NCBI RefSeq assembly: GCF_026210795.1
Contig: NC_089432.1
Location: forward strand, 4,588,001-4,652,000
DNA length: 64,000 bases
Source: Rhizophagus irregularis
Lineage: Eukaryota
Direction: 5' to 3'
Shown: piece after piece, positions 14,087-46,805 of the stretch
How positions within the stretch are numbered: the first letter of the stretch is position 1
Layout: every line of letters starts with the position of its first letter
The notes under the pieces: model-generated
The model's input: the letters and a program-made list of their open reading frames with translations, nothing else
Databases searched by the model: none
What the model was told of the DNA's origin: nothing
Made by a program: the position numbers and the translations under genes

Positions 14087-15196
14087 TTACAAATTATAAA
14101 AATTAAAAGATTTTAATTTATTTTGTGCTTTCTTAAATCCTTGTTTGGCAGATTTTTTATACCAATAAATTGCTTTGCCAATATCCTTTATAATTCCAAA
14201 TTCATACATAATACCAAGCTTATATTGTGCCTCACTACTTCCTAAATTTGCTGACTTTTGATATAATTCAAATGCTTTTTGCTTATCAATTTTAGTTCCA
14301 ATGCCATAATTATAACAATGTCCTAACATTGTTATTCCACCTGAACATCCTTCTTCAGCTGATTGCCTAAACAATTCAATAGCTTTATTATAATTTTTTT
14401 CAACACTAATTCCATCTTTATAAAAAAGACCAAGATTATATATAGCCATTTTGTTCCCATTATTTGCAGCTTTTTCATAATAATGAAAAGCCTTTTTTGT
14501 ATCTTTTTTAATACCTATTCCATTTTCATAAAAATAACCAATTCTTAATTGTCCATGTGTAAAATTTTTATTAGCAAGTTTTTCTAAATAATCAAAAGCT
14601 AATTTTTCATTTTTTATAGTTCCATTTCCACATTGATAACATTCACCAGCAAAAGTTTGTGCTAAAAGATGATGTTTTTCTGATGCACTGATAAATAAAT
14701 TAAATGCTTTCTTATTATTTTTACTTGTTCCAATTCCAAAGCGTTTTAAATATCCAAGTAAAAAAATGGAATTTGAATTATTTTGATTATTTATTAACCA
14801 ATCATAAATTTCTTTTGAATTAGTATTATAATTATTAAAATGTTCAATAATTTTTTTTTTTAATAATTTAGATTCAATACCAATTCCTTCATTAAATGAT
14901 TTAAAAATTAAATCATTTATTTCATCAATTATTATGTCAAAACCTTTTTCAAATAAAAGTTTCTCTCGTTCATTTGATATTGTTATAGGATTAATTTCTT
15001 TTAAATTTATTTTGTTATAACATCGGATAAGTTGAGATGACTCTTCTTGTTGTGATTCTGAATTATCATTAAATTTTTTATTACTTAAGAATTGGACATT
15101 TTCTGTTATATCTGTTGTTGTAATGATTTTTTCTTCAATCAAATTATTCCATTCATTCGTATTTTCGGTATATTGCATTTTCTTATTATCAGGCAT
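14087..15196 (-). CDS. Sel1-like repeat protein, paralog 2
   Basis: ORF with SLR repeats; start placed at MPDNKK by homology with the other paralogs. Confidence 0.9.
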   Translation of the reverse strand: MPDNKKMQYTENTNEWNNLIEEKIITTTDITENVQFLSNKKFNDNSESQQEESSQLIRCYNKINLKEINPITISNEREKLLFEKGFDIIIDEINDLIFKSFNEGIGIESKLLKKKIIEHFNNYNTNSKEIYDWLINNQNNSNSIFLLGYLKRFGIGTSKNNKKAFNLFISASEKHHLLAQTFAGECYQCGNGTIKNEKLAFDYLEKLANKNFTHGQLRIGYFYENGIGIKKDTKKAFHYYEKAANNGNKMAIYNLGLFYKDGISVEKNYNKAIELFRQSAEEGCSGGITMLGHCYNYGIGTKIDKQKAFELYQKSANLGSSEAQYKLGIMYEFGIIKDIGKAIYWYKKSAKQGFKKAQNKLKSFNFYNL

Positions 15197-15589
15197 ATTG
15201 AAATATAATAATTGGCAAAAAGTTTTAAAATGATAGGAATGAAATATCAAAGTTGTAAAATTTGTACGGTAACGAAATCAAGCTCCTTTTAACCGAATAT
15301 TGTCGCACAGCGTTAATAGTATCACCAAACAAAAAAGCTGACAATCATTAGCCGCAGTACCGCAGTATAACTTGCCGCAGAAATGTCATATACACGTGAT
15401 TTGATACCGATCAATTCACACAACCGAATTAGGCCTAAATATTTTTTGGGTTTTTAGGTTGAACGCGAATAAAAGAAAAAAGGAGCATATTTAACTTTTT
15501 TTTTGTGCATTTCTTTTACGTATTTTTTTTTAACATGCCTTCTCAGCAAATTCAAAGTTCCAAAATAACTAAACAAAATCCAAGAACGA

Positions 15590-17465
15590 ATAAAATGACA
15601 AAACCAAGTACTTCAAAACTAGAACATTTGGCCCAAAACCTTTAGCTCCAAAACCTTTAACACAATTAGTTCTAAATCCTGTACCTATTCCTCCACAAAA
15701 CCAAATGTCCTCAGGCTTTAAAATGAGTTATAGAACGGATACTTTTACACTAAACTTTCAATATCCAGAAAATTAAAACAATGAAACTAACAAAGAATTT
15801 GAATATCCTTTACATAAAAATAGTGGAATTGATAATTCATTTCATGAAAAACTATATCAGTTGACATTTTGGACACGGAAACTTAAAGTTTTAATGAGAA
15901 AGATTCAACAGTTAGTTCAAAACCTTTAGCTCCAAAACCTTTAACACAATTAGTTCTAAATCCTGTACCTATTCCTCCACAAAACCAAATGTCCTCAGGC
16001 TTTAAAATGAGTTATAGAACGGATACTTTTACACTAAACTTTCAATATCCAGAAAATTAAAACAATGAAACTAACAAAGAATTTGAATATCCTTTACATA
16101 AAAATAGTGGAATTGATAATTCATTTCATGAAAAACTATATCAGTTGACATTTTGGACACGGAAACTTAAAGTTTTAATGAGAAAGATTCAACAGTTAGT
16201 TCATATTAACGTCATTATAGTGATGCATAATTAATTGCTTTTAGAATATTAAAGAAAATGAAAAAACGTATGATGGAAGAGAAAAAATGTTGAATCTCAA
16301 GTTGTAAAAAGATGGAGTGATGAAGAAATTGACATTTTATCGTCATATTTAGAAGACAATTACGAAAAACTTCAGCAAGGTAAAAATCCATTATGTACAA
16401 TTTAATTTCTACTGAAGTTATTAAGACAAAATCAAGCAAAAGTATTAAAGGCAGGATTAAACGTTTATTGGAACATATGAAAAAGTGAAAAAACAAAATG
16501 ATAAAATAGGTCTAAAAGAATTGGTATGACAAAATGAATAGAATTACAGGTATCATAAAGCATTAATCCTTCTTATATTTCAAATGTCTCTACAAGATAT
16601 ATCAGTGATAGTGATAAAGTAGAAAAAGGAAATTAAGTCAAAAGAGATACAAGAAAGTAAAAAAATTCTATCAAATCTTTGGTTAATGTTATGAATAATA
16701 TTATTCAAGCAAAGCTCAGAATATCTGAACAAAAACTTCATTAGATCGCGAGAAAATGAAATGGAACGTGAAAGAATGAATAAAGAGTTTTAATTGCAAG
16801 TAGAAAATTTTGAAGTTGAAAAGAAAAAATGGTAATTTGTAAAAGAGTAATCATTAAAAAAATAGAATTACAGTTATCACAATGTAATAACTAATTGTTG
16901 TAGACAATTTAATCATTTTATTGATAAATTTAATCAAGAAGTACAATAAAATTTAATTTTAGAGTAGATACCTTACAATAAATTGATAAATATTACTTAT
17001 TTTAACAAAGGAAGTTTTTGTAAAAGAAATATAATTTGAATAATAAAAATCATTATTTTCAATTTATAAATTTACAGTTATAATTTAATTTTATTCTTTT
17101 CAATCATAAAACTATATCTGATTAAAAGGTTGTGAACAATTTGCTCATTATCCAATTTCTCCCGCTCCTTTTCAAGCTTTCTTTATTATCATTTGTCTTT
17201 TTAATTATTGTTATTGTTTTCACAATCTATTCATATTTCATCGTGTGATTCTAAAAATAATAGAGCAAACTATCATATTTACAGCAGTTAAAATTTTAAC
17301 AGACATTTCTTTAATTCCGCCAAACTTGTTTTTTATCCTACCAAATGAATGTTCAGCAATAATTCTGCGTGATGAAAAAATACGATTAACTCTTTATTTG
17401 GTTTACTAAAAGGTTTAATAAAGAATGGTGTTAAAGGATAAGCGCTATCTCCAATTAAGACTTTC
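15590..17465. mobile_element. PIF/Harbinger transposon relic
   Basis: Minus strand ~17280-17460 encodes LIGDSAYPLTPFFIKPF...SSRRIIAEHSFGRIKNKF, a HARBI1/DDE_Tnp_4 C-terminal motif. A decayed convergent plus-strand ORF at ~15590-16860 may be the partner gene. Confidence 0.65.
15634..16203. repeat. Direct tandem duplication with a 284-bp period
   Basis: 15634-15917 is repeated essentially identically from 15918. Confidence 0.9.
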
Positions 17466-19414
17466 GTTAATGACTAGCTGTAACCTGTTACGTTACAATA
17501 GGATTAATAAATTTAAATCAATATAATAATTGAACTTTTGAGTTAATTATAAATAAATAAAAACAATAAAAAACGAATAATAAAAAAACAAACTGTTATG
17601 AGTTATTTTTGTTAGCATTAATAATTAATGATAATTAATAATAAAAAAAAAACAATATTAAAATAAGTATTTTTTCGGCTGGATGATTTAAGAAATCTTA
17701 TTAGTTATTTATTTAAACTAAAAAAAAATCAAACAAAATATATTTATTCAATAACACAACATTTATTCCGATTATATCTCAGCACTAACCGATCAAAACC
17801 TAAAAGGTAAAAGAATAGGAAAAAAGAAATATTAAAAAAAAATAGCCAAAAAAAAATTTTATTAAAAAAATCGAGAAAAAAGGTATTTATCATAGTACCA
17901 CAGCATCGATCTAATTGCTGCTGATGAAATATCTGCCAAATAAGATTACGAATATGCACAAATAGGTTAGAAATACTTCAAAAAAAAAAAATAAATAATT
18001 TATAATAAATTCTTTCTTATTATTAAAATCGTAAAATTTAAATCAATTAAATCAATTAAATTCTCTAAATTATTTTTTTTTATAGTTGTATACTAAGATA
18101 TAATAAATAAAAGTCTTACCAATTTTTATAATCATCCTCAACCTCAAGTATTGCAAGTATTTTTTATTATTATCAAGTTAACTGAATATTTATATTTTTT
18201 CTTATAAATTAAAATGTCGTTCTAGGATTTACAAAACTCATGATTCCGAAAATTTAATTGTTTAAAATAATTGATGCTTATTTGTTGACACTGTTTTTTT
18301 GAAATGATCTTATATACAAAAAAAGTACAATGAAGTAGAGGCCCTCTATTGCATAGTACCAATATTTTCCAAATACTCTGTGACGAAACACATGGTATTT
18401 TCGACGTAGATCCACGTAGGATATAGGGAGTATGGAATTCCACATATTTCTGGATAGTAAATGATTTTTTTCTGATGTAATAAAAAATTATTCGAATGCT
18501 TTTTTAAGGTTTAATTGAATGAATACTACCTAAATAATAATAAAGTGTTGAATCCAAATTAATCATCATTTGATTTTTTATTAAACAATTATATATTTCA
18601 ATTTAAATTTATATCATGATTATTGAAATAATTTAAAATAAATTTTTTTCTTGATTTAGAACCTTTTCCTTGATACTATTTTATGTTAAAATACTATTCT
18701 CTTATTTAACACTTTGATGGTTGTATCTTTATTTTTTATAACTAAAAAATTTTGTCTGCCGTTTAGAATAGTCTCCATATAAATAATTTAACATAAAAAC
18801 CCGTGCCATAGTATGAAAACCCGTAACATATTTGCGCCCGATCTATTCCTTATTTATTATTACACTAAATTACGTAATAATTTCTTTCATTCAAACTTAT
18901 TAAACCATATATTTTTATTTAAACCTATATTTACGATCAATCATTACATCTTAAAAAAAAAAAAAAATAATTATAATTCTAGAAATTCTTCTCTTAGATA
19001 TGACTTTTTTAGTAGACGGAAATAATAAATTGGATGGTTTCTTATAATTTTTCATGTTCATTATTCGCCACGTCGTTTATTTAAAATAAATTCAATTGAA
19101 AATAACTAAATTGACTTTTCATCAATCATGTTTTTATTGATTTTTTTAAATAATATTTAAAAATAATAACAAATTAATAATTTTGCTTATAAAATTATTT
19201 GAAAATTAATAAGGATTCATTAAGTATGACAATCAAATTTGTTACAGTAATATTTTTCTTTTTTTGGTTATGAGGCGTAAAATACTACGCCCTCAAGATT
19301 ACAAAATTTATGTGGGCACAACATGAAGTTTTGATCAACAATTTGCATTTTACTAATTTATCTCGGAGTAACGAACTTAAAATAATTATTTCTTTCTTTC
19401 TTATTGATTGCATT

Positions 19415-21818
19415 ATGTCCACTCTTCGATATGAGTTAATTAATGCAACACTTAATAGAGTAACAACATTAACAGATACTAATATTTACAATGATATACA
19501 CAAACAATTTGAATTTCAAAAACAAACAGTCCTTGCTGATAAAATTCTTACAAATGATGAAAAAACTGAAGCGATGAGAGATTTAACTAAAAATTATGAT
19601 CGAAATAAAATTTTGGATGATGATGGTACAAGAAGAATTTGTGAAAATTGTAACCAAGAATGCTTAGCTACATTATATTGTGAATATTGTGTCCGAAATT
19701 ATTTACAAGAAAATTTTCCAAATTGGACATCCGGGAATGATGATATTGATAATTTAATACAGGAATGTCAAATGGAATCACTTAATCCACAAACGATTGT
19801 TGAATGGATCCCATATAGTAATTTAGAAAATATTAAATATTTAACAAAAGGTGGATTCTCAGAAATTTATTCAGCAGGCTGGATTAATGGAAATTATGAA
19901 GAATGGGATTTTGAAAAAAAACAATTAAAAAGATTTGAAGATTGCAAAGTAATATTAAAAAAATTAGAAAATGTCAAAAGTGCAAATCAAAGTTGGTTTG
20001 AAGAGGTTTGTATTATTGTATTCTATATTTCATAAAATTGTGATTTTTGTATTAGCACTAGTATTTTTACAAATTATTGTCTTTTAGGCTAAATCACATT
20101 TAACTATAAGTAATAAATGGGCAGATGTTGTTCGATGTTATGGTTTAACACAAAATCCATCAAATGGAAATTATATGCTTGTAATGAATAAAATGGATAT
20201 AGATTTAAGAAAATATTTACAACAAAATCATAATCAACTTACATGGAAAAAGAGAATTAATATTACTTTTGAAATAATTCTCGCACTTTACTATATTCAT
20301 TTTGAGGAAGCAATTCATAGAGATTTACATTCTGGAAATATATTATATTCACAATTAAATGATTCCTGGTATATTAGTGATCTTGGATTTTGTGGACCTG
20401 CTGATAAATCTTCAACAAGTATATATGGAAATCTTTCTTACATAGCACCCGAAGTTATTATTGGAAGAAAATATACTTTTGCATCTGATATTTATAGTAT
20501 TGCAATGCTTATGTGGGAAATTTCATTTGGACAACCACCATTTATGGATTATGAAGATGAACATATTCTTGTATATAATATTATTGATGGTATAAGACCA
20601 AAAATTGTACCAGGAACTCCATTAGAATATAAAAATTTAATGAAAGAATGTTGGGATGCTGATCCATTAAAAAGACCTGACATTTGTGCACTTGAGGATA
20701 GAATGTTAAGAATTAATTTAGATTATCAAAATATGTCAGATGAATTATTCAAATCAGAAATAGATAATTTAGAAATGAATAAAGTAGAAGAAAATTATAC
20801 GAGTAGCAGATTATTTACAAGTAAAATTCACAACTTTGGAAATCTACCTGAACCAAGAAATGCAACAGAAGGTATAAGTGTATAATATTTTATTAATGGA
20901 TGTATTTATTTTAAAATACATTATTAATGTTATCTTTTTATTATAATAATAGAAGAACAAGAAGGTATAAACGTATATAGAATTTTTGGTTACTATAATT
21001 ATATAGTTTTAAATACTTTATTTTACTGTTAATAGTGTTTCATAGTAAATTGTATGATTTTAACATTCCTAACAAAAGTAAGTATTTAATAACATTATAG
21101 CGTCGAATTATCATGTAATGATGTCTACTGATAATTAATTTTTATTTTAGTTAACGACTTTAATAAATCAAATGAGCAGTATAGTAAGAAATTATCAAGT
21201 ATAATTAATAAATGTTTTTAAAGGTGATTTGTTTGAAATAATAGATTAAAGATTAAAATCTATTTCTATGTTCTTAATTTTAGGTGATAGTGAAAAATTA
21301 CCCAAAGAATTTATAAATTTGCAAAATTCAAATAGTAAGTAAATAAGTAATATTCATCGTTTCAGTTTCATTTATTATATAACATGACTTTTATTTTAAA
21401 AATAATACGACGAAAAAGAAATTATTCAACAACAAATGTAAAGGAAAGATATTGATATTGATGGTAAGCAAAAAAAAGTAAAAATTATTTTGTCAATATA
21501 TTTATTTAATGTATAAACTTTAATTTAAAAATTTAGATGATGAAAAAGAAATAATTCAACAAAAAACTAAAAGGCAAAATATTGGTGATATTGATGGTAT
21601 GCGAATTTTTAATTTAATTTAATTTTTATATTATTTTTTAATTTAATTATTCATTTCTTACAGATGAAGATGAAGTATATAATAATCCAAACTTTCATTC
21701 AAAAGAACAAGATGAACTGGAAATTCCTGATGGTAAGTTCTTGAATAAATAAGATTTCTTTATAAAGCAAATAATTAATTTATAATTTGTCATTTTTTTA
21801 ACTTTAGATGGATTTTGA
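19415..21818 (+). CDS. Multi-exon protein kinase (Glomeromycotina-type expanded family), copy 1
   Basis: Exon 19415-20005 (CxxC motifs, WTSGN, KGGFS); exon 20088-20871 (HRDLHSGN, DLG, APE, DIYS); then several short acidic 3' exons, including a 12-nt one at 20953-20964. Probable premature TAA at 21439-21441 in the tail. Confidence 0.85.
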
Positions 21819-23833: not shown

Positions 23834-24934
23834 TTATTTTTTAAGTTTTTTCAATTTATTTTTTGCTTCCTGATAACCTTGTTTGGCAGATTTTTCATAC
23901 CAATAAATTGCTTTGTCTATATCTTTTGTAATTCCATCTCCATGTTCATACATATTACCAAGATTAAATTGTGATGTAATACTTCCTAAATTTGCTGATT
24001 GTTGATATAACTCAAATGCTTTTAGCTTATCTTCTTCAGTTCCAATACCGTTATCATAACAATAACCTAATGAAGTCATTCCACTTGCATATCCTTCTAT
24101 AGCTGATTGATTAAATAATTTAAAAGCTTTATTATAATCTTTTTTAACACCTTTTTTTCCATACTTATAGCAATTACCAAGATAATGCATAGCTATTACA
24201 TTTCCATTATTTGAAGCTTTTTCATACCAATAAAAGGCCTTTTTTATATCTTTTTTAATACCTATTCCATTTTCATAAAAATAACCAATTCTTAATTGTG
24301 CATATGCAAAATTTTCATAAGCAAATTTTTCTAAATAATCAAAAGCTAATTTTTCATTTTTTATAGTACCATAACCAAATTGATAACATTCACCAACATA
24401 AGATTGTGCTAACATATGATTTTTTTTTAATGCATCAATAAATAAATTAAATGCTTTCTCATTATTTTCTTTTGTTTCAATTCCAAAATAATTAAAATAT
24501 CCAAGTAAAAAAATGGAATTTGAATTATTTTGATTATTTAATAACCAATTATAAATTTCTTTTGAATTAGTATTATAATTATTAAAATGGTCAATAATTT
24601 GTTTTTTTAATAATTTAACATCAATTCCTTTATTAAATGATTTAAAAATTAAATCATTTATTTCATCAACTATTATATCAAAACCTTTTTCAAATGAAAT
24701 TTTTTCTCGTTCATTTGATATTGTTATAGGATTAATTTCTTTTAAATTTATTTTGTTAAAATATTGATGATTAAGTTGAAATAATTCACCTTGTGATTCT
24801 GAATTATTATCAAATTTTTTATTGCTTAAATATTGAGTATTTACTGATATATTTGTTATTGTAATGATCATTTCTTCAATCCTATTATTACATTCATTCG
24901 TATTGGTATCTTGCATTTTCTTATTATCAGACAT
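23834..24934 (-). CDS. Sel1-like repeat protein, paralog 3
   Basis: ORF with SLR repeats; start at MSDNKK by homology; downstream flank is homologous to the flank of paralog 1. Confidence 0.9.
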   Translation of the reverse strand: MSDNKKMQDTNTNECNNRIEEMIITITNISVNTQYLSNKKFDNNSESQGELFQLNHQYFNKINLKEINPITISNEREKISFEKGFDIIVDEINDLIFKSFNKGIDVKLLKKQIIDHFNNYNTNSKEIYNWLLNNQNNSNSIFLLGYFNYFGIETKENNEKAFNLFIDALKKNHMLAQSYVGECYQFGYGTIKNEKLAFDYLEKFAYENFAYAQLRIGYFYENGIGIKKDIKKAFYWYEKASNNGNVIAMHYLGNCYKYGKKGVKKDYNKAFKLFNQSAIEGYASGMTSLGYCYDNGIGTEEDKLKAFELYQQSANLGSITSQFNLGNMYEHGDGITKDIDKAIYWYEKSAKQGYQEAKNKLKKLKK

Positions 24935-27900
24935 ATTGAAATATAAATAATTGGCAAAAAGTTTCAAAATGATAGGATGACGGTAACAAAAGTAACTCCT
25001 TTTTAAGTAATTTATGCGTATTATTCTCCGAATATTGTCGCACAGCGCCATTAGCGGTCAATCATTAGCCGCAGTACCACAATTGCCATAGAAAAATGAG
25101 ATGTTTGCGTGATTTTATGCCGATCATTTCTAAAAATGTTAAGTCAAATAAGTTAAATAAGTTAATTATATCAATATTGCGTAACTCTCCATTTACGTCG
25201 ATTAATAAAAGTATTAAATTTTTGTCTTGTTGATAGATAATTCTTTTTGGGTAATGCAAATATTTGTAATTTTTATAAACTTGATAGATGATATTATTAA
25301 ATTTAAACTTTTCAATTTTTTTTTTTAAGAATTTTATCTAATTTTAAAATTTTAATTGTTTCCACTAATAAAATTGGTTATATTACTTATTTTATAAAAA
25401 TAAATTTTCATTTATAAAAAAAGAATCCATGGATAAAATTCACCAAATAATAGCGAACAATTGTGCAAATTATTATGAATAAAATAAAATTATCCAGATA
25501 TGGTATTGTAAAAAAATTGGTGAACAATACTTTTCTTCTAATAATAGAAATAAATATCTTAAGATCGATCAATTTAAAACTTAAGAAATAAAACTGAGAA
25601 AAATTTTATTAGCAATACAACGACTTAAATAAGTCTTATACTATTCACATGTAATAGTAATTTTTAAATTGTTTACAAAAGTTCTTTTGTAAATGGTTGT
25701 TTAAGACCCACATTTACTAAAATTAATCATCCAAATATATTATTTTTTTCTTTATAGTACTCGACTCTGTATCTTCACCATTTTCATGTTTAAAAAAATA
25801 AATGATCTTATTCTCATCCTTATGATAAGCAAAGGATATTGCATTATCTAAGGGCATAAGGGATGAATACATTGACGCAAAAATATAACTTTAGTTATTG
25901 ATAAATTCGCCTTAACCAAAAAAAGAAATAAATATCTTTTTTTCTAAAAAAAAAAAATTCGATATGTATATATTTTCTCATATATGCATTAAATTAGAAT
26001 AAAAATACTTTAAAAAGAGATAAATCAATAATATTTTAATTAAAAACCTTTTTAAGTAAACAAAATAATTTTAATAGTGAATAGTGTGAATTAAAATCAA
26101 TATTTGATAAATAATTAATTTATTAAAAGCTTTTATAAATCAACACTTTAACACTCAGTCATATTTTCATTAAAAAAAAAAATACATATTTACTTGCAAT
26201 TTTTTTTTTAATAAATACAAAAAATAAATTTTTATAAAATAAATAATTTTTAATCATTAGCACATTTCATTTTCTTCTCATGCAATGGGAATCCTATTCC
26301 AACATCATTTTTTTTAATATATATATAATAACTTTTACAATGTTAAAAGATTATACTATTATAATTCTGGAAAGAAATACAGTTATATAATAAAAAAAAA
26401 AGAAATAATTTTTTTTTTAATATATATATCATATATTAAAATTTATTATATTATTTAGAAGGGAACCTTTTCATGGCGATATTAAGCGTTTTTGAAAAAA
26501 AAATTCATACTTTTATATTATAAAAAAGTTAATTACTAATCCCACATATATAAGGAATAGGTTATGCACCTTCCCTTATAGTAGTTAAAATTTTATAATA
26601 TTAATATTTATATATAAATATATTAGCAATATATTGTTTATTTCAAAGTTAAATATTTTATAAAGTTAATGGAAAAGAAAACTATTCTTCCTACAGCAAG
26701 TAATATTTTATAATAGTAATTAAAAAATTAGTCCATGTGGAACAGTTCATATTAGTAATTAAAAAATTATTTATATAAATAATTTTTATACATATAAAAA
26801 ATAAGCCTAAAGGAGAAATCAGTTATGTATACTTATACATAAAATAATTGAAAAAAGCTTGTATTTTTGTATAAACTATTAACTATTTAATTAGTATTTT
26901 TTATTTATTTTGAATATACATAAAATATTCAATTATATATTTTCCTATAGTAGTTGTAAAATACACTGACAAACATTTTTAATATCATATACTGTATACA
27001 TTTTAATAAAATAATTCAACAGTTAACATCTGTCCGGTAATTACGATATATTAATTTATTTATAATTCTACTATTGTGATTTATTTAAAAAATTAAGACA
27101 GAATACATTTAACATTAACATCTAAAGTAACAAAAAGGCAACACTAGAAACTATATTCAAAGTTACTGGCTAAAAAAAAAATAATAATAATTATTGTGCA
27201 AATACAATATTAGTAAAGTTATATAATTTTATGATATCAAAAGTCAATGGTATATCTGACGATAACTATTGGATAATTATATATTTTGTAATATAAACAA
27301 CCTACAAGTTTACTCTATTTACTTATCGTAAATAATTTTCTCCAATGTTTTTTTCCGTAGATTTTATTTATATTATAATATGTAATAAAAGTAAAGTATA
27401 GATAAATTATATATAGAATTTTGTTTTTTACAAAAAACTTTCATTACATAGTAGCATAACTAAAAACTATTCCAGTATAATTTCATTATCTATTACTTAT
27501 TCTAAAATTTTTTTGACACATTATTTTTAGTCAGTACTGTAAAATCACAAATCCATTGCATTTATTTTGATACTATGACGAACTTAACCTATCACATGAT
27601 TAAATCATTGTTTACCAAAATATTAAAAGACAATACTTTCATTCCCACCATTACCAGTGATTCGCGCAGTAGGCGCAGCGTACATTACTTTTCTTTACCA
27701 CAAAACCTGAAATATAGTCTTCCTATCCTCAAAAATTGATCATTGAAAAAAAATAAAAATCCACAGTATAATGTAATCATATTTGATGATATTACAACCA
27801 ACTTTATTAGAGCAATAGAGCAATAATAATGAGATACTTAGATAAGCAAATAGTTAAAACTAAATGATTGTTTTACTTAAATCATGAATAATAAAGTTAA

Positions 27901-29354: not shown

Positions 29355-30119
29355 ACACTAAATAGCAAAAAATATTGCTTTTACCAAATTGCTTCTTTTG
29401 ATATCATTAGAATAAAATTACAAATTAAGCATTCCTGTGCCACTTTCATTGCATGTTTAATTTAGTCATCAAATAATAGGATTTCACATCAAATTTGATT
29501 TAGATGATCTTCAAAGAAATAAAGCTACGAATATTTTTTTTTCTAAGCTAAAAAAAAAACCCCAAAATATTGTGTTACATCTTTTTTTTTTTGCAGGAAA
29601 AAAAAATTGGTTGGATAAAAAAAATATTGCGTCATAAATAGATCTTGGATTTTTTTAAAAAAAATCATTTTTCTTTCTTTTTTTAGAAAGAAACATCATT
29701 TTTTTTGATTATCATTATCCAATTACAATACTTATCATTATTTAACTCCCTTTTTTTTCATTTTACTAAAAAAAAAAAAAATTTTTTCTTGGAAGGAAAC
29801 ATTTTTATTAATATTTCCTTTTATTTTGTTATGTTCAAACAAGTTTGGATAGGTGGAAAGGTGAATTTTGTAATAGTTTACTTTGTTACGAAACTTAGTA
29901 TTTTTTATTAGAGAAATTTCTAGAAAAAATTAATTTTTTAATTTTTTTATTTTTTTGTAGGGTATTTGACTCTAATAAAAATTATATAAACTTTTTAAAA
30001 ATAAAAACATTAACGTTTTTTTCTTTTTTTGTAAAGAAATCAACTGGATATTGGAATCTCAATAAGTTTCAAAATTTGAAACTTTTAAAAAAAAATGATG
30101 TTTTTCTTTATTTTTGTAG

Positions 30120-33100
30120 AGAAATTGGTTCCGATTTGGATACCAGATCTCCAATAAGTAAGTTTCGATTTGAAACTTTTAAAAAAAAATATTTTTTTTT
30201 TTTAATTTTTTTTTCTTCTATTTTGTAGATTTTGGCTCCGCGTTGGATATATGGGTGAGTTTTGAGGTGAAAGCTTCAAAAAAAAATTATTTTTAATTGT
30301 TTTGGCTTCCAGTTCCTAAGTATTGAATATAATCAATATATAGATGATAACTATGAAATTTTTTTAAAAAATTATTTAATTTTTTTTTCTTCTACTTTGT
30401 AGGTTTCAGCTTCTAGTTCTTGGACGTTAGATGGGTAAGTTTTGACTTCGGAACTTAAAAAAATTTTTTTTAATTTACTTATATTTTTTATTTATTTTGT
30501 AGGTTCAGCTTTTAGTTTTTGAACTTTGAGTATATAGGTGAGTTTTAGAACGAAAGAATTGAACCTTTTTTTTAAAAAAAAAATTTTTTTTTAATTTTTT
30601 TTTCCCTCTATTTTCTCTATTTTGTAGATCTTGGCTTTTGGTTCTTGGGTGTTAAGTATATAGATGAGTTTCAGAGTGAAAGAATCGAAGCTTTTTTTTT
30701 AAAAAAAAAATCAAATTTTTTTAAATTTTTTTCTTCTATTTTTGGCTTTTGGTTCTTAGGTGTTGAATATATAGGTGAGTTTCGGAGTGAAAGAGATGAA
30801 ACTTTTTTAAAATAAATTATTTATTTTGATTTTTTTTTTCTTCTATTTTGTAGGTTTGACTTTCGATTCTTGAGTGTTGAATATATAGGTGAGTTTCAGA
30901 GTGAAAGAGACGAAATTATTTTAAAATAAATTATTTATTTTGATTGTTTTTTTCTTCTATTTTGTAGGTTTGGCTTTCGGTTCTTGGGTGTTGAATATAT
31001 AGGTGAGTTTCGAAGCAAAAGAGCCAAAACTTTTTTAAAATAAATTATTTATTTTGATTTTTTTTTTCTTCTATTTTGTAGGTTCGGCTTTCAGTTCCTG
31101 GTATTGAATATATAGGTGAGTTTCAGAGTGAAAAAGCCGAAACTTTTTTTAAAATAAATTATTTATTTTGATTTTTTTTCTTCTATTTTGTAGATTTTGG
31201 CTATCAGTTCTCGGGCGTTTGATATTGGTGAGTTTTGAAGCGAAACCTTCAAAACTTTTTAAAAATAAATTATTTATTTTGATTTTTTTTTTCTTCTATT
31301 TTGTAGATTTCGGCTATCAGTTCTTGGGCGTTTGATATTGGTGAGTTTTGAAGCGAAACCTTCAAAACTTTTTAAAAATAAATTATTTATTTTAATTTTT
31401 TTTTTCTTCTATTTTGTAGGTTCAGCTTTCGGTTCTTGGTGTTAAATATATAGGTGAGTTTCAGAGTGAAAGAGCCGAAACTTTTTTTAAAATAAATTAT
31501 TTATTTTGATTTTTTTTTCTTCTATTTTGTAGATTTCGGCTATCAGTTTTTGGGCGTTTGATATTGGTGAGTTTTGAAGCGAAACCTTTGAAATTTTTTT
31601 AAAAAAAAATTTTTTAATTTACTTATTTTTTTTTTATTTTGTAGGTTTCGACTTTCGGTTCTTGGACGTTTGTTATTGGTGAGTTTCGAAGTGAAAAAGC
31701 CAAAACTTTTTTTAAAATAAATTAATTTATTTTAATTTTTTTTTCTTCTATTTTGTAGATTTCAGCTTTTGGTTCTTGGATGTTTGATATATAGGTGAGT
31801 TTTGGAGCGAAAGAGCCAAAATTTTTATTAAAATAAATTAATTTTTAATTTTTTTTTTCTTCTATTTTGTAGGTTTCGACTTTTGGTTCTTGGATGTTTG
31901 TTATTGGTGAGTTTCAAAGCGAAAAAGCCAAAACTTTTTTTAAAATAAATTAATTTTTTTTAATTTTTTTTTTCTTCTATTTTGTAGATTTCAGCTTTTG
32001 GTTCCTGGTGTTAAATATATAGGTGAGTTTCAGAACGAAAGAGCCAAAACTTTTTTTAAAATAAATTATTTATTTTGATTTTTTTTTCTTCTATTTTGTA
32101 GATTTCGGCTGGTGTTTGATATAGGTGAGTTTTGAAGCGAAACCTTTGAAATTTTTTAAAAAAAAAATTTTTTTTAATTTACTTATTTTTTTTTTATTTT
32201 GTAGGTTTCGACTTTCAGTTCTTGGACGTTTGTTATTGGTGAGTTTCGAAGCGAAAAAGCCAAAACTTTTTTTAAAATAAATTAATTTATTTTAATTTTT
32301 TTTTTCTTCTATTTTGTAGATTTCAGCTTTCGGTTCTTGGATGTTTGATATATAGGTGAGTTTTGAAGCGAAAGAGCCAAAATTTTTATTAAAATAAATT
32401 AATTTTAATTTTTTTTTTCTTCTATTTTGTAGGTTTCAGCTTTCGGTTCTTGGAAGTTTGATATATAAGTAAGTTTCAAAGCGAACGAGCTGAAACTTTT
32501 TTTAAAATAAATTATTTTAATTTTTTTTTCTTCTATTTTGTAGATTTCGGCTTTCAGTGAGTTTCAAAGCAAAAACTTTGAAAGTTTTTTTAAAAAAGTT
32601 TTTTAATTTACTTACTTTTTTTTATTTTGTAGATTTCAGCTTTTGGTTTAGATATATAGGTGAGTATCGGAATGAAAGAGCTGAAACTTTTTTTAAAATA
32701 AATTATTTATTTAATTTTTTTTTTCTTCTATTTTTGTAGATTTCAGCTTTCAGTTCTTATGCGTTTGATTTAAAGGTAAATTTCAAAGTTTTGTTTTCTT
32801 TTCAAAACTTTAAAAATTTTTTTTAATTTTATTTATTTGTTTTTTTATTTTGTAGTTATCGGTTGTAATATCCTTGGGCTTTGGATAGGTGAGTATTGAA
32901 GTTTTGCTTTCTTTTTGAAACTTTAAAAAAGATTTTTAATTTTATTTTATTTTATTTTATTTTATAGGTAATGGCTGCGACATCTCATTGGGCTTTGGAT
33001 CGGTAAGTTTCATTTTCTTTTCAAAACTTTTTTAATAAAAATTATTTTTTAAAATTTTCTTTTATTCTGTAGGTTTCGACTGCAATATCTCCTTAAACTT

Positions 33101-33480
33101 TGGGTCAGTGAGTTTCAAAGTTTCGTTTTTTTCAAACTTTCAGAAAAATTTATAATTTTATTTATTTTTTTTATTTTGTAGGTATCGGTTGTGATATCTT
33201 TGGGCATTGAAATGGTAAGTTTTGAAGCAAATACTTCAAAACTTCTTAATAAAAATTGTTTTTTAATTTGACTCTTTCTTTATTTTGTAGGTTTCAGCTG
33301 CGATATCTTTGGATCTGTGAGATTCAAAGAATGCTCCAGAATTTTCTTTTTAAGGAAATTGACTCCGATTTGGATACCATAAGTAAGTTTTGATTCAAAA
33401 CTTTAAAAAAAACTTTATTTTTATTATTTTTAATGTTACTTTTTCTTTTTGTAGGGAAATCGGCACCTGAATCCCAATAG
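30120..33480 (+). repeat. Tandem array of ~30 intron/short-exon units (~110-115-bp period)
   Basis: Recurring TTTTGTAG | 13-36 nt (mostly 33-36) | GTGAGT/GTAAGT. Confidence 0.85.
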
Positions 33481-33844
33481 TAGATCTTTTATAAATAATG
33501 CACGATTTTTATAGGACTTTAGCTTCTATGGAATTTCTTATCTTTATTTGTTGTCTGTTGGAATCGAACCAACTGGAACCAATATCCAAACCATTAACAA
33601 CATGTAAATTTTTAGTAAAGGTGGAATTTTAATTATTAGCATACAGTAAATTATTATTTTTTTTTTGTAAATACTTTTAATAAATGCTTTTAATAAATAT
33701 GATAATGTTAGTTGTCACTTATCATTAAATAATTTGAATCAAAAAAAAAAAAAAATTAAATTTTTTTTGTTAGAGCATTTTATAAACGCCAGTAAAATGC
33801 AATTTGATTTGATATTGACATTTCAATACACAAAATTAAACAAT

Positions 33845-33879
33845 GGGGGACGAAGTCCCCCGCAAAACGCAATTTCTAG
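33845..33879 (+). mobile_element. Helitron-type 3' terminus
   Basis: Perfect hairpin gggggac-gaa-gtccccc (33845-33861), then CTAG (33876-33879) followed by T. Confidence 0.75.
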
Positions 33880-33884
33880 TTTAA

Positions 33885-35630
33885 TATATAATATCTACGT
33901 ATAATTTTAACTAACTCAATTCTTCATTTAAAAATTATTTCATAATATAGGATGTAAGTAATTTATTTAATTCTGTTATTTCATTTTTATATAAATTTAC
34001 ATATAATTTAAACTAACTAAATCTTATTTAAAAAATTGTTAATGATATAGGGGGTAAGTTAGTTATTTAATTCCATTATTATATATAAATAAATTTAAAC
34101 TAACTAAATTCTTTATTTAAAAATTATTTAATAATATAGAGCGTAAGTTATTTATTTGATTCTATTATTACAGATTTATATGATATTTAAATATAACTTA
34201 AACTCACAAATTCTTTATTGGAAAAATTATTTAATAATATAGGGGGTAGTTATTTATTATTTATTTAATTCTATTATTACATATTTATATAATACATATT
34301 TACATATAACTTAAACTAACTAAAATTCTTTATTCTAAAAAAAACTTTTAATAATAGTATATAGACTATAGAGTGTAAGTTATTTATTTAATTCTATTAT
34401 ATATTTATATAATATTTGCATAACAATTTAAGCTATCTAAATTTGTTATTTAAAAAATTATTTTTGCAATTTCTTTCAGTTGGTAAGTTATAAGTTATTT
34501 ATTCAATTCTATTATTACATATTTGTATAATATTTACATATAACTTAACTAATTCAATTCTGTATATTAAATAACATAGAACATAAGTTATTTAATTCAG
34601 TCTTTATTTATATATTTATATAATATTTATATATAATTTAACCAAACTAAATTAATTAATTATTTAATAATAGGAGGTAAAGCTATCTATTTAAATTTAC
34701 TATTATATAAATTATGTAGTAATTTAAACTAATTAAATTCTTTATTCAAAAAATTATTTAATAATATAGAGAGTAAGTTATTTATTTAGTTATATATTTA
34801 CATGATATTTACAATAATTTACATATAATTTGAACTAAATAAATTCTTTATTTAACAGTTAGTAAGTTATAAGTTATTTATTCAGAATCTATTATTATTA
34901 TTACATATTTAAATAGCTAAATTCTTTATTTGAATAATTATTTAATCATTTATTTAATTCTATTATTACATATTTACATAACATCTACATTAATTTAAAC
35001 TAACTTCTTTATTTAAAAATTATTTAATAATATACTAGAGAGTAAGTTATTATTTAATTCTGTCATTACATATCTATATGCATAATTTAAATAACTAAAT
35101 TCTTTATTTAAAAAATTATTTTGTATTCACTTTTAGTTGGTAAGTTATAAAGTTATCTATTTTAATTCAATATTTACATATAATTTAATTTAAACTAACT
35201 AAATTCTTTATTTAAAATATTATTTAATAATATAGGGCGTAAGTTATTTAATTAATTCTATTATATAATATTTACATATAATTTAAAACTAATTAAAACC
35301 TTTATTAAATAATTATTTAATAATATAGGACGTAAGTTATTTAATTCTATTATTACATATTTATATAATATTTACATATAATTTAACTAACTAAATTCTT
35401 TATGTATAAAATTATTAATGATATAGGTCGTAAGTTATTTATTTATTGCACATTATAATATTTGTATATGATTTGAACTAACTAAATTCTTTATTTAAAA
35501 AATTATTTTGTAATTTCTTTTAGTTGGTAAGTTATAAGTTATTTATTTAATTCTATTATTATCACATATTTATATAATATTTACATATAATTTAAATTAA
35601 TTAAATTCTTTATTTAAAAAATTTATTTGT
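33885..35630 (+). repeat. Tandem array of AT-rich introns separated by 3-nt micro-exons
   Basis: Unit of ~90-130 bp: ACTAAC-like branch point ... YAG | NNN | GTAAGT; 16 occurrences. Confidence 0.85.
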
Positions 35631-35708
35631 TGTTTTATCATCATATATTTTATATAATATTTATTTGCTAACTGAATTTTTTCATTTGAAAAATATCTAT
35701 TACATTTT

Positions 35709-35907
35709 CCCTATAAAAAATTTTTATCCGAATATTTCCATTATTTCTCTGTGTCTTCCGTAAAAATTCCGTGAAAATGATACATTCACGGATATCCGTG
35801 TTAGCGAGATGAAAATTTCCATGATTTAAGGCTATAAATTCCATGAAAATGATACATTCACGGAAAAAACATGGAAAGATAAAACACGGATCAGATTTTT
35901 TACAGGG
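35709..35907. mobile_element. Small TIR element (unclassified MITE)
   Basis: ccctataaaaaa / ttttttacaggg termini with T-tracts on both flanks; internal repeat of gaaaatgatacattcacgga. Confidence 0.65.
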
Positions 35908-36077
35908 TTTAGTTGTAAGTTTGTGAATAATATATAGGTTATTACATGTATTTATACAAAAAACTAAGACTTGCATTAATATTAAATTCCTATTTAAATT
36001 TTAGAATTTTAATTTTAAACTTTATTGTAATTTATAATAAAAACTTTATTAATAATTTTAATCATTTAAATTAACAG

Positions 36078-37264
36078 AAGAAGGAGTGGAAATGCAATTC
36101 TGGATGAATTTATCTTTAAAAAGGATTTAAAATGGATTTCTTATAATCAATTTATTAATGTTGAATATCTTAATCAAGGAGGATTTGGTATTATATACAA
36201 AGCTATTTGGTTAAATGATTATAAGGATGAAGAAGTAATTCTTAAATGTCATGATAAGTTAAATGAAAATTTAAATGAATTTTTACATGAAGTATGATAT
36301 TAACATATTAGTATATTATTTTTTTTTTAATAATTATTTATACTGATTGATTATTATTTTTTTTTTTATAGTGGAAATACCATGAAAGATGTTTAGATTC
36401 AAATAATATCATTAATTTTTATAAATTTACAAAAAATCCAGATAATTTAAAATATATGGTAGTAATGGATTATGCAAACAAAGGTAATTTAAGAGAAAAT
36501 TTAGCAAGAATAATCAAAAATAATTGGAAACAAAAATTATATATGTTGTATGAGATTATTTCTGGACTTAATGAGATACATCAGCAAGATCTTATTCATT
36601 GTGATTTTCATGATGGTAATATTTTAAGTCATAATGATAGGAATGAGGATAAAATTTATATTAGTGATTTGGGATTATGTCAACCTGCAAAATCATTTTT
36701 AAAAGAGTACGTTATTTTTGGTGTTATACCATTTATGGCACCTGAAATTTTAAGAGGCAAAGCTTATACTCCTGCTAGTGATATATATAGTTTTTCTATG
36801 ATTATGTGAGAACTTACAGGATACCACCATTTAATAACAGGGCACATGATATTCAACTTAGTTTAAGTATTTGTAAGGGTGAACGTCCTGAAATTATTGA
36901 AAATACTCCACAATGTTATGTAGATTTGATGAAAAAATGTTGGAATGAAGATCCATTAAAAAGGCCATCATCTGAAAAAGTCTTAGATATTATTAAGAAA
37001 TGGATTTATCTTCCTTATGAAATGAAATTTGAAGATATTGATGAGAACTTAAAATGCAGTGTTATGGAATTTATAAATACACCAATTAAGCATAACACTC
37101 TTGTTACTGAATCTCATTCGCAAGCATGTTATACAAGTCGCTTACTTGATTTTAGTAGTAAAAACTTAAATGAAATTCTTGAAAATGAAGATTTACAAGC
37201 TAGTATGAAAGTGAATGAAATGCTAGTAAGCGAAGATTTAAATAATTGTATAATTAAGATTTGA
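36078..37264 (+). pseudogene. Protein kinase with premature stop and frameshift
   Basis: Exon 36078-36291 (SGNAILDEFI, QGGFG, VILK); exon from 36372 (HCDFHDGN, DLG, APE, DIYS). TGA at 36807-36809 where Trp is expected, followed by a frameshift. Confidence 0.8.
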
Positions 37265-44225: not shown

Positions 44226-46630
44226 TTAAAATCCATCTAAAGTTAAAAAATAACAAATTATAAATTAATTATTTGCTTTAAAAAGAAATTCAATTTATTT
44301 AAGAACTTACCATCAGGAATTTCCAGTTCATCTTGTTCTTCTGAATGAAGATTTGGATTATTATATACTTCGTCATCATCTGTAAGAAATAAATAATTAA
44401 ATTAAAAAATAACATAAAATTAAATAAAAAATTCGCATACCATCAACATCACCAATATTTTGTCTTTTCGTTCTTTGTTGAATTATTTCTTTTTCATCAT
44501 CTAAAATTTTTAAATTAAAGCTACATTAAATAAAATATATTGACAAAATAATTTTTACTTTTTTTTTGCTTACCATCAATATCAATATCTTTCCTTTTCA
44601 TTTGTTGTTGAATTATTTCTTTTTCGTCATATTATTTTTAAAATAAAAGTCACGTTATTTAATAAATGAAACTGATACAATGAATATTATTATTTCACTT
44701 ATTTACTTACTATTTGAATTTTGCAAATTTATAAATTCTTTGGGTAATTTTTCACTATCACCTAAAATTAAGAACATAGAAATAGATTTAATATTTAATT
44801 AATTATTTCAAATAAATAACCTTTAAAAAATATTTATTAATTATACTCGATAATTTCTTACTATACTGCTCATTTGATTTATTAAAGTCGTTAACTAAAA
44901 TAAAAATTAATTATTAGACATCATTACATGATAATTCAACGCTATAATGTTATTAAAAACTTACTATTGTTAAAAACGTTAAAATCATACAATTTACTAT
45001 GCAACACTATTAACAGTAAAATAAAGTATTTAAAACTAAATAATTATAGTAACCAAAAATGGTAGAAATTATTGTTATACCTTCTTGTTCTTCTATTATA
45101 ATAAAAAGATAACATTAATAATGTATTTTAAAATAAATACATCCATTAATAAAATATTATACACTTATACCTTCTGTTGCATTTCTTGGTTCAGGTAGAT
45201 TTTCAAAGTTGTGAATTTTACTTGTAAATAATCTGCTACTCGTATAATTTTCTTCTACTTTATTCACTTCTAAATTCTCTATTTCTGATTTGAATAATTC
45301 ATCTGACATACTTTGATAATCTAAATTAATTCTTTCCATTCTATCCCAAAGTGCATAAGCGTCAGGTCTTTTTAATGGATCAGCATCCCAACATTCTTTC
45401 ATTAAATTTTTATATTCTAACGGAGTTCCTGGCACAATTTTTGGTCTTATACCATCAATAATATTATATACAAGAATATGTTCATCTTCATAATCCATAA
45501 ATGGTGGTTGTCCAAATGAAATTTCCCACATAAGCATTGCAATACTATAAATATCAGATGCAAAAGTATATCCTCTTCCAACAATAACTTCGGGTGCTAT
45601 GTAAGGAAGATTTCCATATATACTTGTTGAAGATTTATTAGCAGGTCCACAAAATCCAAGATCACTAATATACCAATAATCATTTAATTGTGAATATAAT
45701 ATATTTCCAGAATGTAAATCTCTATGAATTGCTTTCTCATCATGAATATAACTAAGTGCAAGAATTATATCATAAATAATCTTAATTCTCTTTTTCCATG
45801 TAAGTTGATTATGATTTTGTTGTAAATATTTTCTTAAATCTATATCCATTTTCATCATTACGAGAAAATAATTTCCATTTGATAGATTTTGTGTTAAACC
45901 ATAACATGGAACAACTTCTGCCCGTTTATTACTTATAGTTAAATGTGATTTAGCCTAAAAGACCATAATTTGTAAAAATACTAGTGCTAATACAAAAAAT
46001 TACAACAATTTTATAAAATATAGGATACAATATACAAACCTCTTCAAACCAACTTTGATTTGCACTTCTAACATTTTCTAATTTTTTAAGCACTATAACA
46101 TGATTTCCGCGTCTCTTTAATTGTTTTTTTTCAGAATCCCATTCTTCATATCTTCCATTAATCCAGACTGCTGAATAAATTTCTGAGAATCCACCTTTTG
46201 TTAAATATTCAATATTTTCTAAATTACTATATGGGATCCATTCAACTATATCCTTTGGCTCGAGTGATTTCATTTGACATTCCTGTATTAAATTATCAAT
46301 ATCATCATTCCCGGATGTCCAATTTGGAAAATTTTCTTGTAAATAATTTCGGACACAATATTCACAATATAATGTAGCTAAGCATTCTTGGTTACAATTT
46401 TCACAAATTCTTCTTGTTCCTGAATTATAATTAATTTTATCTCGATCATAATTGTCAATTAAATATCTTATTGCTTCAATTTTTTCATCATCTGTAAGAA
46501 TTTTATCAGCAAGGACTGTTTGTTTTTGAAATTCAAATTGTTTGTGTATATCATTGTAAATATTAGTATCTGTTAATGTTGATACTCTATTAACTGTTGC
46601 ATTAATTAACTCATATCGAAGAGTGGACAT
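44226..46630 (-). CDS. Multi-exon protein kinase, copy 2 (inverted paralog of 19415-21818)
   Basis: Same exon-intron structure and highly similar sequence; HRDLHSGN, DLG and APE are intact. Confidence 0.85.
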
Positions 46631-46805
46631 AATGCAATCAATAAGAAAGAAAGAAATAATTATTTTAAGTTCATTACTTCGTTACTCCGAGATAAATTAG
46701 TAAAATGCAAATTGTTGATCAAACTTCATGTTGTGCCCACATAAATTTTGTGACCTTGAGGCGTAGTATTTTACGCCTCATAACCAAAAAAAGAAAAATA
46801 TTACT

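Follow-up and report, generated by a model that had tools for sequence, protein, structure and literature searches.

A row of three-nucleotide exons, spliced mainly in order, probably supplies a segment just ahead of the kinase core in kinase mRNAs of arbuscular mycorrhizal fungi, and one gene of this kind, in a broken copy, lies in the window, the 64,000 nucleotides of Rhizophagus irregularis DNA analysed here (NC_089432.1, positions 4,588,001 to 4,652,000). More tentatively, we suggest that such genes form a large unannotated class of kinases, with some TPR and SH3 proteins, in which each exon contributes a single split codon to a recognition segment and the intron padding confers minisatellite-like dynamics. 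The segment would then be an immune-like specificity module under diversifying selection, and the hydrophobic N-termini in some public models of these kinases would be off-frame artefacts.

The window array and its broken kinase gene

The array lies directly upstream of a decayed kinase gene, and the locus comprises the following features.

33845..33879, forward strand: Helitron-like 3' terminus, with a GC hairpin at 33845-33862, then CTAG, then T; adjoins the array
33951..35526, forward strand: sixteen 3-nt exons in AG/3 nt/donor units; phase 1 taken from the family
34583..34588, forward strand: dead donor after the AAC exon, AT for GT
34862..35038, forward strand: 177-nt intron, about two units long, in which the middle acceptor, exon and donor are absent
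35527..35708, forward strand: one decayed unit lacking AG, followed by the 5' part of the intron that leads to the 17th unit, branch motif at 35667
35709..35907, no strand assigned: 199-bp inverted-repeat insertion, probably MITE-like, bounded by terminal inverted repeats and flanked by TTT at either end
35913..35914, forward strand: 17th unit, a 2-nt remnant TT, found as a spacing-2 match; paralog reads have TTG before the kinase exon
36078..36291, forward strand: first large kinase exon; compared with expressed paralogs its start falls short by 4 nt
36292..36371, forward strand: 80-nt GT..AG intron, spliced in paralog reads (joint 36291 to 36372)
36372..37264, forward strand: second kinase exon, matching PF07714/PF00069 and carrying a premature TGA (36807-36809) as well as a deletion of 4 nt near 36818

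The sixteen exons start at 33951, 34051, 34140, 34243, 34372, 34480, 34580, 34674, 34770, 34859, 35039, 35137, 35236, 35329, 35427 and 35524, and every triplet and coordinate agrees with an earlier note made from the letters alone. A perfect YAG-NNN-GTRAG is present in 13 of these 16 units. Across the whole window, YAG-N3-GTRAG occurs 15 times on the forward strand, 13 of them inside the array, and other spacings of 1 to 12 nt between YAG and GTRAG give 0-2 matches per strand; the pattern of three consecutive units has 3 matches, all within the array, and none in any of 100 shuffles. The introns measure 86-126 nt, apart from the single one of 177 nt, and an exact CTRAY branch motif stands 32-57 nt before the 3' end of 10 of the 15 internal introns, with variants in the other 5. 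The earlier observation that splice signals are kept while the triplet varies holds in the aligned units: the triplet columns are the least conserved part, with a majority base of 0.38-0.44 as compared to 0.44-1.0 over 20 nt on each side, in a wider parse that also allowed AAG acceptors, mis-called some start-exon ends as units, and served for the column-conservation, junction-type, window-shuffle and class B counts.

The aberrant donors after the exons at 34243, 34580 and 34674 are exactly as first described, those at 34246 and 34677 carrying 1-nt indels that keep the GT. The 177-nt intron likely marks a lost micro-exon, and the TT at 35913-35914 is the remnant of a TTG-type terminal micro-exon. 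Two further units have decayed besides this damaged 17th; all three had been overlooked in the first reading, as had the 199-bp insertion and the Helitron-like 3' terminus. The 199-bp insertion contains the start codon of the public model GBC22546.1 (Rhizophagus irregularis DAOM 197198), part of which is identical to the exon at 36078. Downstream of the array, the window product has Pfam matches to PF07714/PF00069 only; this kinase subfamily gave 89 matches among 101 candidates, all 89 named Rhizophagus, which points to an expanded paralogous family.

The window copy is a decayed pseudogene, as had been proposed: it is broken by the TGA at 36807, by deletions near 36080 and 36818 and by the AT donor at 34583. 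At position 36809, where the window has the last letter of TGA, 745 of 747 paralog polyA reads have G, and paralog reads have additional letters at 36818-36821. As the first kinase exon starts 4 nt short, it is out of frame with phase 1 in the window. No start exon was found upstream, and a tblastn search of eight paralog N-termini (the MGQ/EEFE start exon) against the window returned no match.

Helitron 3' ends consist of a hairpin followed by CTRR before a T, and the hairpin with CTAG-T at 33845..33879, the only hairpin+CTRR site in the whole window, resembles such an end. Just inside it, at 29600-33500 of the forward strand, sits a second intron-exon tandem array with a period of about 114 and 27 parsed exons of 13-38 nt; its splice sites are well preserved, its phases are mixed, and each frame holds 13-18 stops. 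On the grounds of these phases and stops we rejected it as the missing 5' part of the kinase gene, and it is likely a non-coding multi-exon repeat. The window also holds a perfect 284-bp tandem duplication at 15634-16203, possibly an assembly artefact, as well as three Sel1-like repeat ORFs and two CxxC-type kinase genes, labelled by eye and lacking micro-exon arrays (773-1903, 14087-15277, 23834-25057, 19274-20885 and 45157-46681).

Related arrays and their reading frame

We scanned metagenome contigs for three consecutive units, obtained at least 117 stretches and fetched 115 loci. These were sorted into 44 class A loci (AT-rich, variable triplets), of which 43 were kept after one duplicate was dropped, and 22 class B loci (GC-richer); the remaining 49 were excluded as short-period repeats, invariant triplets or arrays of too few units. 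The window units align with class A units. For the class A stop, Trp and divergence counts only YAG acceptors were accepted, and GT donors were relaxed for 47 extra junctions.

The association of such arrays with kinases, raised by the earlier note for this one locus, recurs: a related kinase follows the array in 13 of the 43 class A loci among the matches listed. Ten are tblastn matches, among the 16 class A loci of the matches listed that have at least 250 nt behind the array, and three more are L008 (Pfam), L022 (by eye) and L078 (outside the tblastn parse); in L009, L040, L063 and L071 the array runs into unrelated sequence. In a protein search, the named relatives of the class A kinase of L010 were exclusively Glomeraceae, at 63% identity or less, which, together with the alignment of window and class A units, suggests that the class A loci stem from a related glomeromycotan source. 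None of the 18 inspected protein matches of L010 has a transcript-derived micro-exon N-terminus. Two class A loci have other partners: in L108 (305-804) the array continues into an SH3 start that scores below the curated cut-off, and in L037 (1-1183) a TPR-like exon, identified by eye, lies upstream of the array. Arrays would thus not be restricted to kinase N-termini.

The idea that the units are coding micro-exons of the kinase N-terminus, also put forward earlier, is supported by the frame of the kinase exon, by stop counts and by the TTG found ahead of the kinase exon in reads of paralogs. In all nine readable loci of the ten shown among the matches listed, the kinase exon starts in phase 1; the tenth, L060, is without that exon. 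Each codon should therefore span two micro-exons, with one base from the end of the first and two from the start of the second. In L002 the 52-nt ATG exon ends in phase 1, and a single open frame runs from it through 18 micro-exons into the kinase; other start exons also end in phase 1, as judged by eye. Read in this family frame, the window array gives WEREFEREIKIGRRL. The window array alone is not significant in a phase-1 stop test, as 30% of shuffles in the wider parse are equally stop-free.

Across the 43 class A loci among the matches listed, adjacent phase-1 junctions contain 0 stops in 280, against 10.9 +/- 2.6 under exon-order shuffles, a test whose p-values are optimistic because these loci share ancestry and few source assemblies. 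The same 280 junctions hold 57 stops in phase 2 and 3 in phase 0, and the 47 that came from the relaxed donor parse, absent from the first test, have 0 stops too (all among the matches listed). To blunt shared ancestry we also counted distinct junction types in the wider parse: where the left exon ends in T, AA, AG or GA follows in 0 of 53 types among the matches listed, with 20% expected. Trp, made by T before a junction and GG behind it, occurs at 35 of 233 junctions among the matches listed, as compared to 15.6 expected and a maximum of 26 in 5000 shuffles. The two open frames of the joined triplets translate as had been reported. The reading that begins MGAGVT, proposed for direct joining to the kinase exon with the TTG/TTA exons skipped, was rejected: it is in phase 2, the phase with 57 stops in related arrays where phase 1 has none. 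A phase-0 reading through the 2-nt remnant, open into the window kinase exon when followed by hand, was rejected: it requires two lesions to coincide, and both the relatives and the paralog RNA are in phase 1.

Four of the 24 listed RNA runs were aligned to the kinase exons only. The two polyA sets comprise 2094 and 2302 reads, nearly all paralogous; reads at least 99% alike to the window kinase stretch number 6 of 2094 and 0 of 2302. PolyA read depth is zero upstream of 36079, and in this alignment of kinase exons no reads joining the window array's own triplets were seen. Loose ends before 36085 were carried by 139 and 171 reads of the two polyA sets and by 6 contigs of a third run. Their consensus ends in TTG followed by AA TTT GGA AAA, in phase 1, and reads roughly RRHAFEFGK in the kinase frame; cut by hand in phase 1, it yields triplets such as GTC, GGC, AGA and TTG, all of which the window array has too. 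This supports the splicing of micro-exons in expressed paralogs, themselves known from reads alone, from a consensus that mixes many paralogs (agreement 0.73) and that longer exons could also give.

Public gene models carry further traces. Strings of I, G, L, M, V and R precede the kinase in 8 of the 11 Rhizophagus models examined, and their composition correlates with that of class A triplets taken as codons (Spearman 0.52, p 0.02) but not with that of the phase-1 product (0.15). In two of the 8, the preceding exon is read one base off the acidic EEFE frame, as checked by hand. Gene prediction has probably picked up the micro-exons off frame. Six models that read through an intron have LE before FGK or a variant of it, which places an acceptor just before AA; four show the TTG-donor sequence as V/I-GKLF, and many current models begin at or just before FGKSGN, or have off-frame hydrophobic strings. 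The start exons are hydrophilic by eye and lead into a kinase domain. Three public models begin MGQ[R/C/Y]I, which fits the N-myristoylation pattern. A myristoylation-like start, read by the earlier note as MGxxxT in the array, is present in a separate upstream exon of paralogs, and the array frame that suggested it is wrong.

Class B arrays, with introns of about 77 nt, behave differently. Among the matches listed and in the wider parse, they have 0 stop triplets of 242 in phase 0, against 8.5 expected, and 20 stops at 170 phase-1 junctions, duplicates included. Being stop-free in phase 0 and not in phase 1, their hosts, which are other organisms and likely fungi, seem to use another phase. 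The GC-richer L020 (1412-5570) combines a Roc/MMR_HSR1-like GTPase gene with a subsequent row of about 29 3-nt exons, separated by 77-nt introns and stop-free in phase 0. In L038 and L019/L051, class B arrays lie behind short exons that resemble signal peptides by eye; these could possibly be secreted proteins made from codon-sized exons, nearer to schistosome MEGs.

The prokaryote assemblies held 12 pattern matches, namely 9 with invariant triplets, 1 periodic repeat and 2 with variable triplets, the last of which look like eukaryotic carry-over. One of them, L122 (1-1900), is filed in a Mycoplasma MAG and has about 30 variable 3-nt exons with 30-nt intron-like units between them; it is probably eukaryotic carry-over with very short introns. 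The other, L125 (1-411), comes from a Candidatus Glomeribacter assembly and has four variable 3-nt units; it is likely host fungal DNA, and hints that the arrays extend to another glomeromycotan order.

Probable splicing in order and a possible role of the segment

We propose that the 3-nt exons, each set in a complete intron unit of 85-125 nt, would be joined mainly in order and would code for the stretch that immediately precedes the kinase core, with the codons split across exons as described above. Units of about 95 bp would be gained and lost by unequal crossing-over, a turnover suggested by the lost, decayed and duplicated units, and the protein would change by single residues and yet stay non-repetitive. 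In ordinary family members this place is probably taken by a CxxC-CxxC motif: in 83 of 105 named relatives, a CxxC stands no more than 40 residues ahead of NWTSGN, and in the micro-exon genes some ten residues of the kinase exon precede NWTSGN, so that the micro-exon peptide sits where the motif would be. Our best guess is that the segment provides variable binding or specificity, possibly in non-self recognition.

The divergence between units bears on this role. We compared 55 within-locus pairs with near-identical inner flanks, the outer flanks having played no part in their selection. Triplets mismatch at 63 of 165 positions (0.38), against 266 of 1878 (0.14) in the outer flanks, in pairs that are not independent and among the matches listed; across the three positions the triplet changes number 19, 15 and 29, wobble changing least with 15 (among the matches listed). 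The segment might instead be mostly a passive linker, spliced in order, with its introns homogenised by gene conversion and its exons held apart by purifying selection. This possibility, which we regard as the less likely, shares the splicing part of our explanation and differs in function only. Near-identical intron flanks around differing triplets are what intron-confined conversion tracts predict, and the peptides are short, with many D, N, W, R and K residues; however, both codon-changing positions vary more than wobble (19 and 29 versus 15), and array length and content differ widely between related genes.

A specificity segment of this kind could also owe its diversity to splicing. The earlier note had proposed that skipping exons could diversify the N-terminus. 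On this view each transcript would include a different subset of micro-exons, itself a selected source of diversity, as in the Tuber nank genes, for which the available parts of the sources describe such splicing (PMC4986451, PMC13449251, PMC10197012). All exons being 3 nt and symmetric, skipping does keep the frame, and 17 of the 18 single skips in L002 remain open; in phase 1, however, each skip also changes a neighbouring codon. Triplet shifts separate the two loose-end consensuses from RNA, whose agreement is 0.73, but a mixture of paralogs suffices to explain the low agreement. Moreover, stops are fully depleted at adjacent junctions and match shuffles at skipped ones: skip-one junctions have 11 in 228 (null 8.9) and skip-two junctions 11 in 180 (null 7.1), among the matches listed. 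The recurrent Trp likewise requires two particular neighbours. These results suggest that selection has cleaned the in-order product only, which argues for mainly constitutive inclusion, and we consider combinatorial skipping as the selected mode to be improbable. From these junction counts, the exons are likely spliced mainly in sequence and not freely combined. In L002, 79-91% of products stay open when exons are skipped at random; alternative splicing at a moderate level would therefore show only faintly in such counts, and low-level skipping may produce minor isoforms.

That the array is an untranslated AT-rich satellite with splice-like words arising by chance can practically be dismissed. 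Tandem Repeats Finder does call it an 89-98 bp repeat, and satellites do fit the pattern: 49 of the 115 metagenome loci, among the matches listed, were excluded as satellites or for being too short, and 10 of the 12 prokaryote-assembly matches are plain repeats. In those satellites, however, the triplet is invariant or periodic, whereas here no part of the unit varies more than the triplet; stop avoidance is confined to one phase, that of the flanking exons, and paralog RNA carries TTG in place of an intron end.

Comparison with known systems

A literature search of openly available papers, supplements aside, found no report of such arrays from Glomeromycota, and the available part of the long-read R. 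irregularis annotation paper, likewise without its supplements, describes none. The available part of one source puts the number of kinase genes in R. irregularis at about 2,500 (PMC10234402). If 15-40 residues beside the catalytic core of whole subfamilies do come from 3-nt exons, current models lack the segment or mis-frame it. The arrays also offer a clean test system for a spliceosome that removes twenty introns three bases apart, and can show which process diversifies them: splicing, as has been reported for Tuber, or change in the DNA, to which the stop pattern points here.

The closest known counterpart, the codon-sized micro-exons of the Tuber melanosporum nank (NACHT-ankyrin) family, was reportedly described by Iotti et al. 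in 2012. In the portions of later papers at hand, nank genes have tens of tandem 3-bp exons that are extensively alternatively spliced (PMC4986451, PMC13449251, PMC10197012). As far as those portions go, the two systems share a fungal host, an expanded gene family, many tandem 3-bp exons and a plausible role in diversification. Tuber nank is, however, an NLR with NACHT and ankyrin domains, whereas the gene described here is a tyrosine-kinase-like kinase of Glomeromycota without an NLR domain. Here the codons are split across exons in phase 1, the Tuber comparison resting on exon size and not on phase, and the sequence signal favours in-order inclusion over the extensive alternative splicing described for nank.

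Schistosoma MEGs, in the excerpt available, have exons of 3-81 bp and introns as long as 5 kbp, and their products are secreted (10.1101/2023.06.21.545858). Runs of short frame-preserving exons are common to both, those here being 3 nt and phase 1-1; unlike the MEGs as excerpted, the present arrays have uniform 3-nt exons in intron repeat units of about 95 bp, and their product leads into a kinase domain. Coprinopsis cinerea is described, in the part of the paper at hand, as having 27 isolated 3-nt exons spread over 26 genes, and as there, fungal spliceosomes cope with exons of 1-3 nt, which break gene models (PMC12230235); that amounts to about one micro-exon per gene, whereas 16 to more than 20 stand in tandem here. 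The high-internal-conservation repeats of Podospora NWD/NLR genes, as far as the accessible text describes them, are near-identical units with hypervariable positions for which unequal crossing-over has been proposed (PMC13449251). The arrays resemble them in both the near-identity and the hypervariable positions, but the Podospora repeat is a coding WD40 unit, whereas the unit here consists almost wholly of intron and contributes a single residue. Rows of codon-sized exons were already known from Tuber nank; the present arrays, which belong neither to nank nor to the MEGs, differ in their host gene, lineage, split codons and the evidence for in-order splicing.
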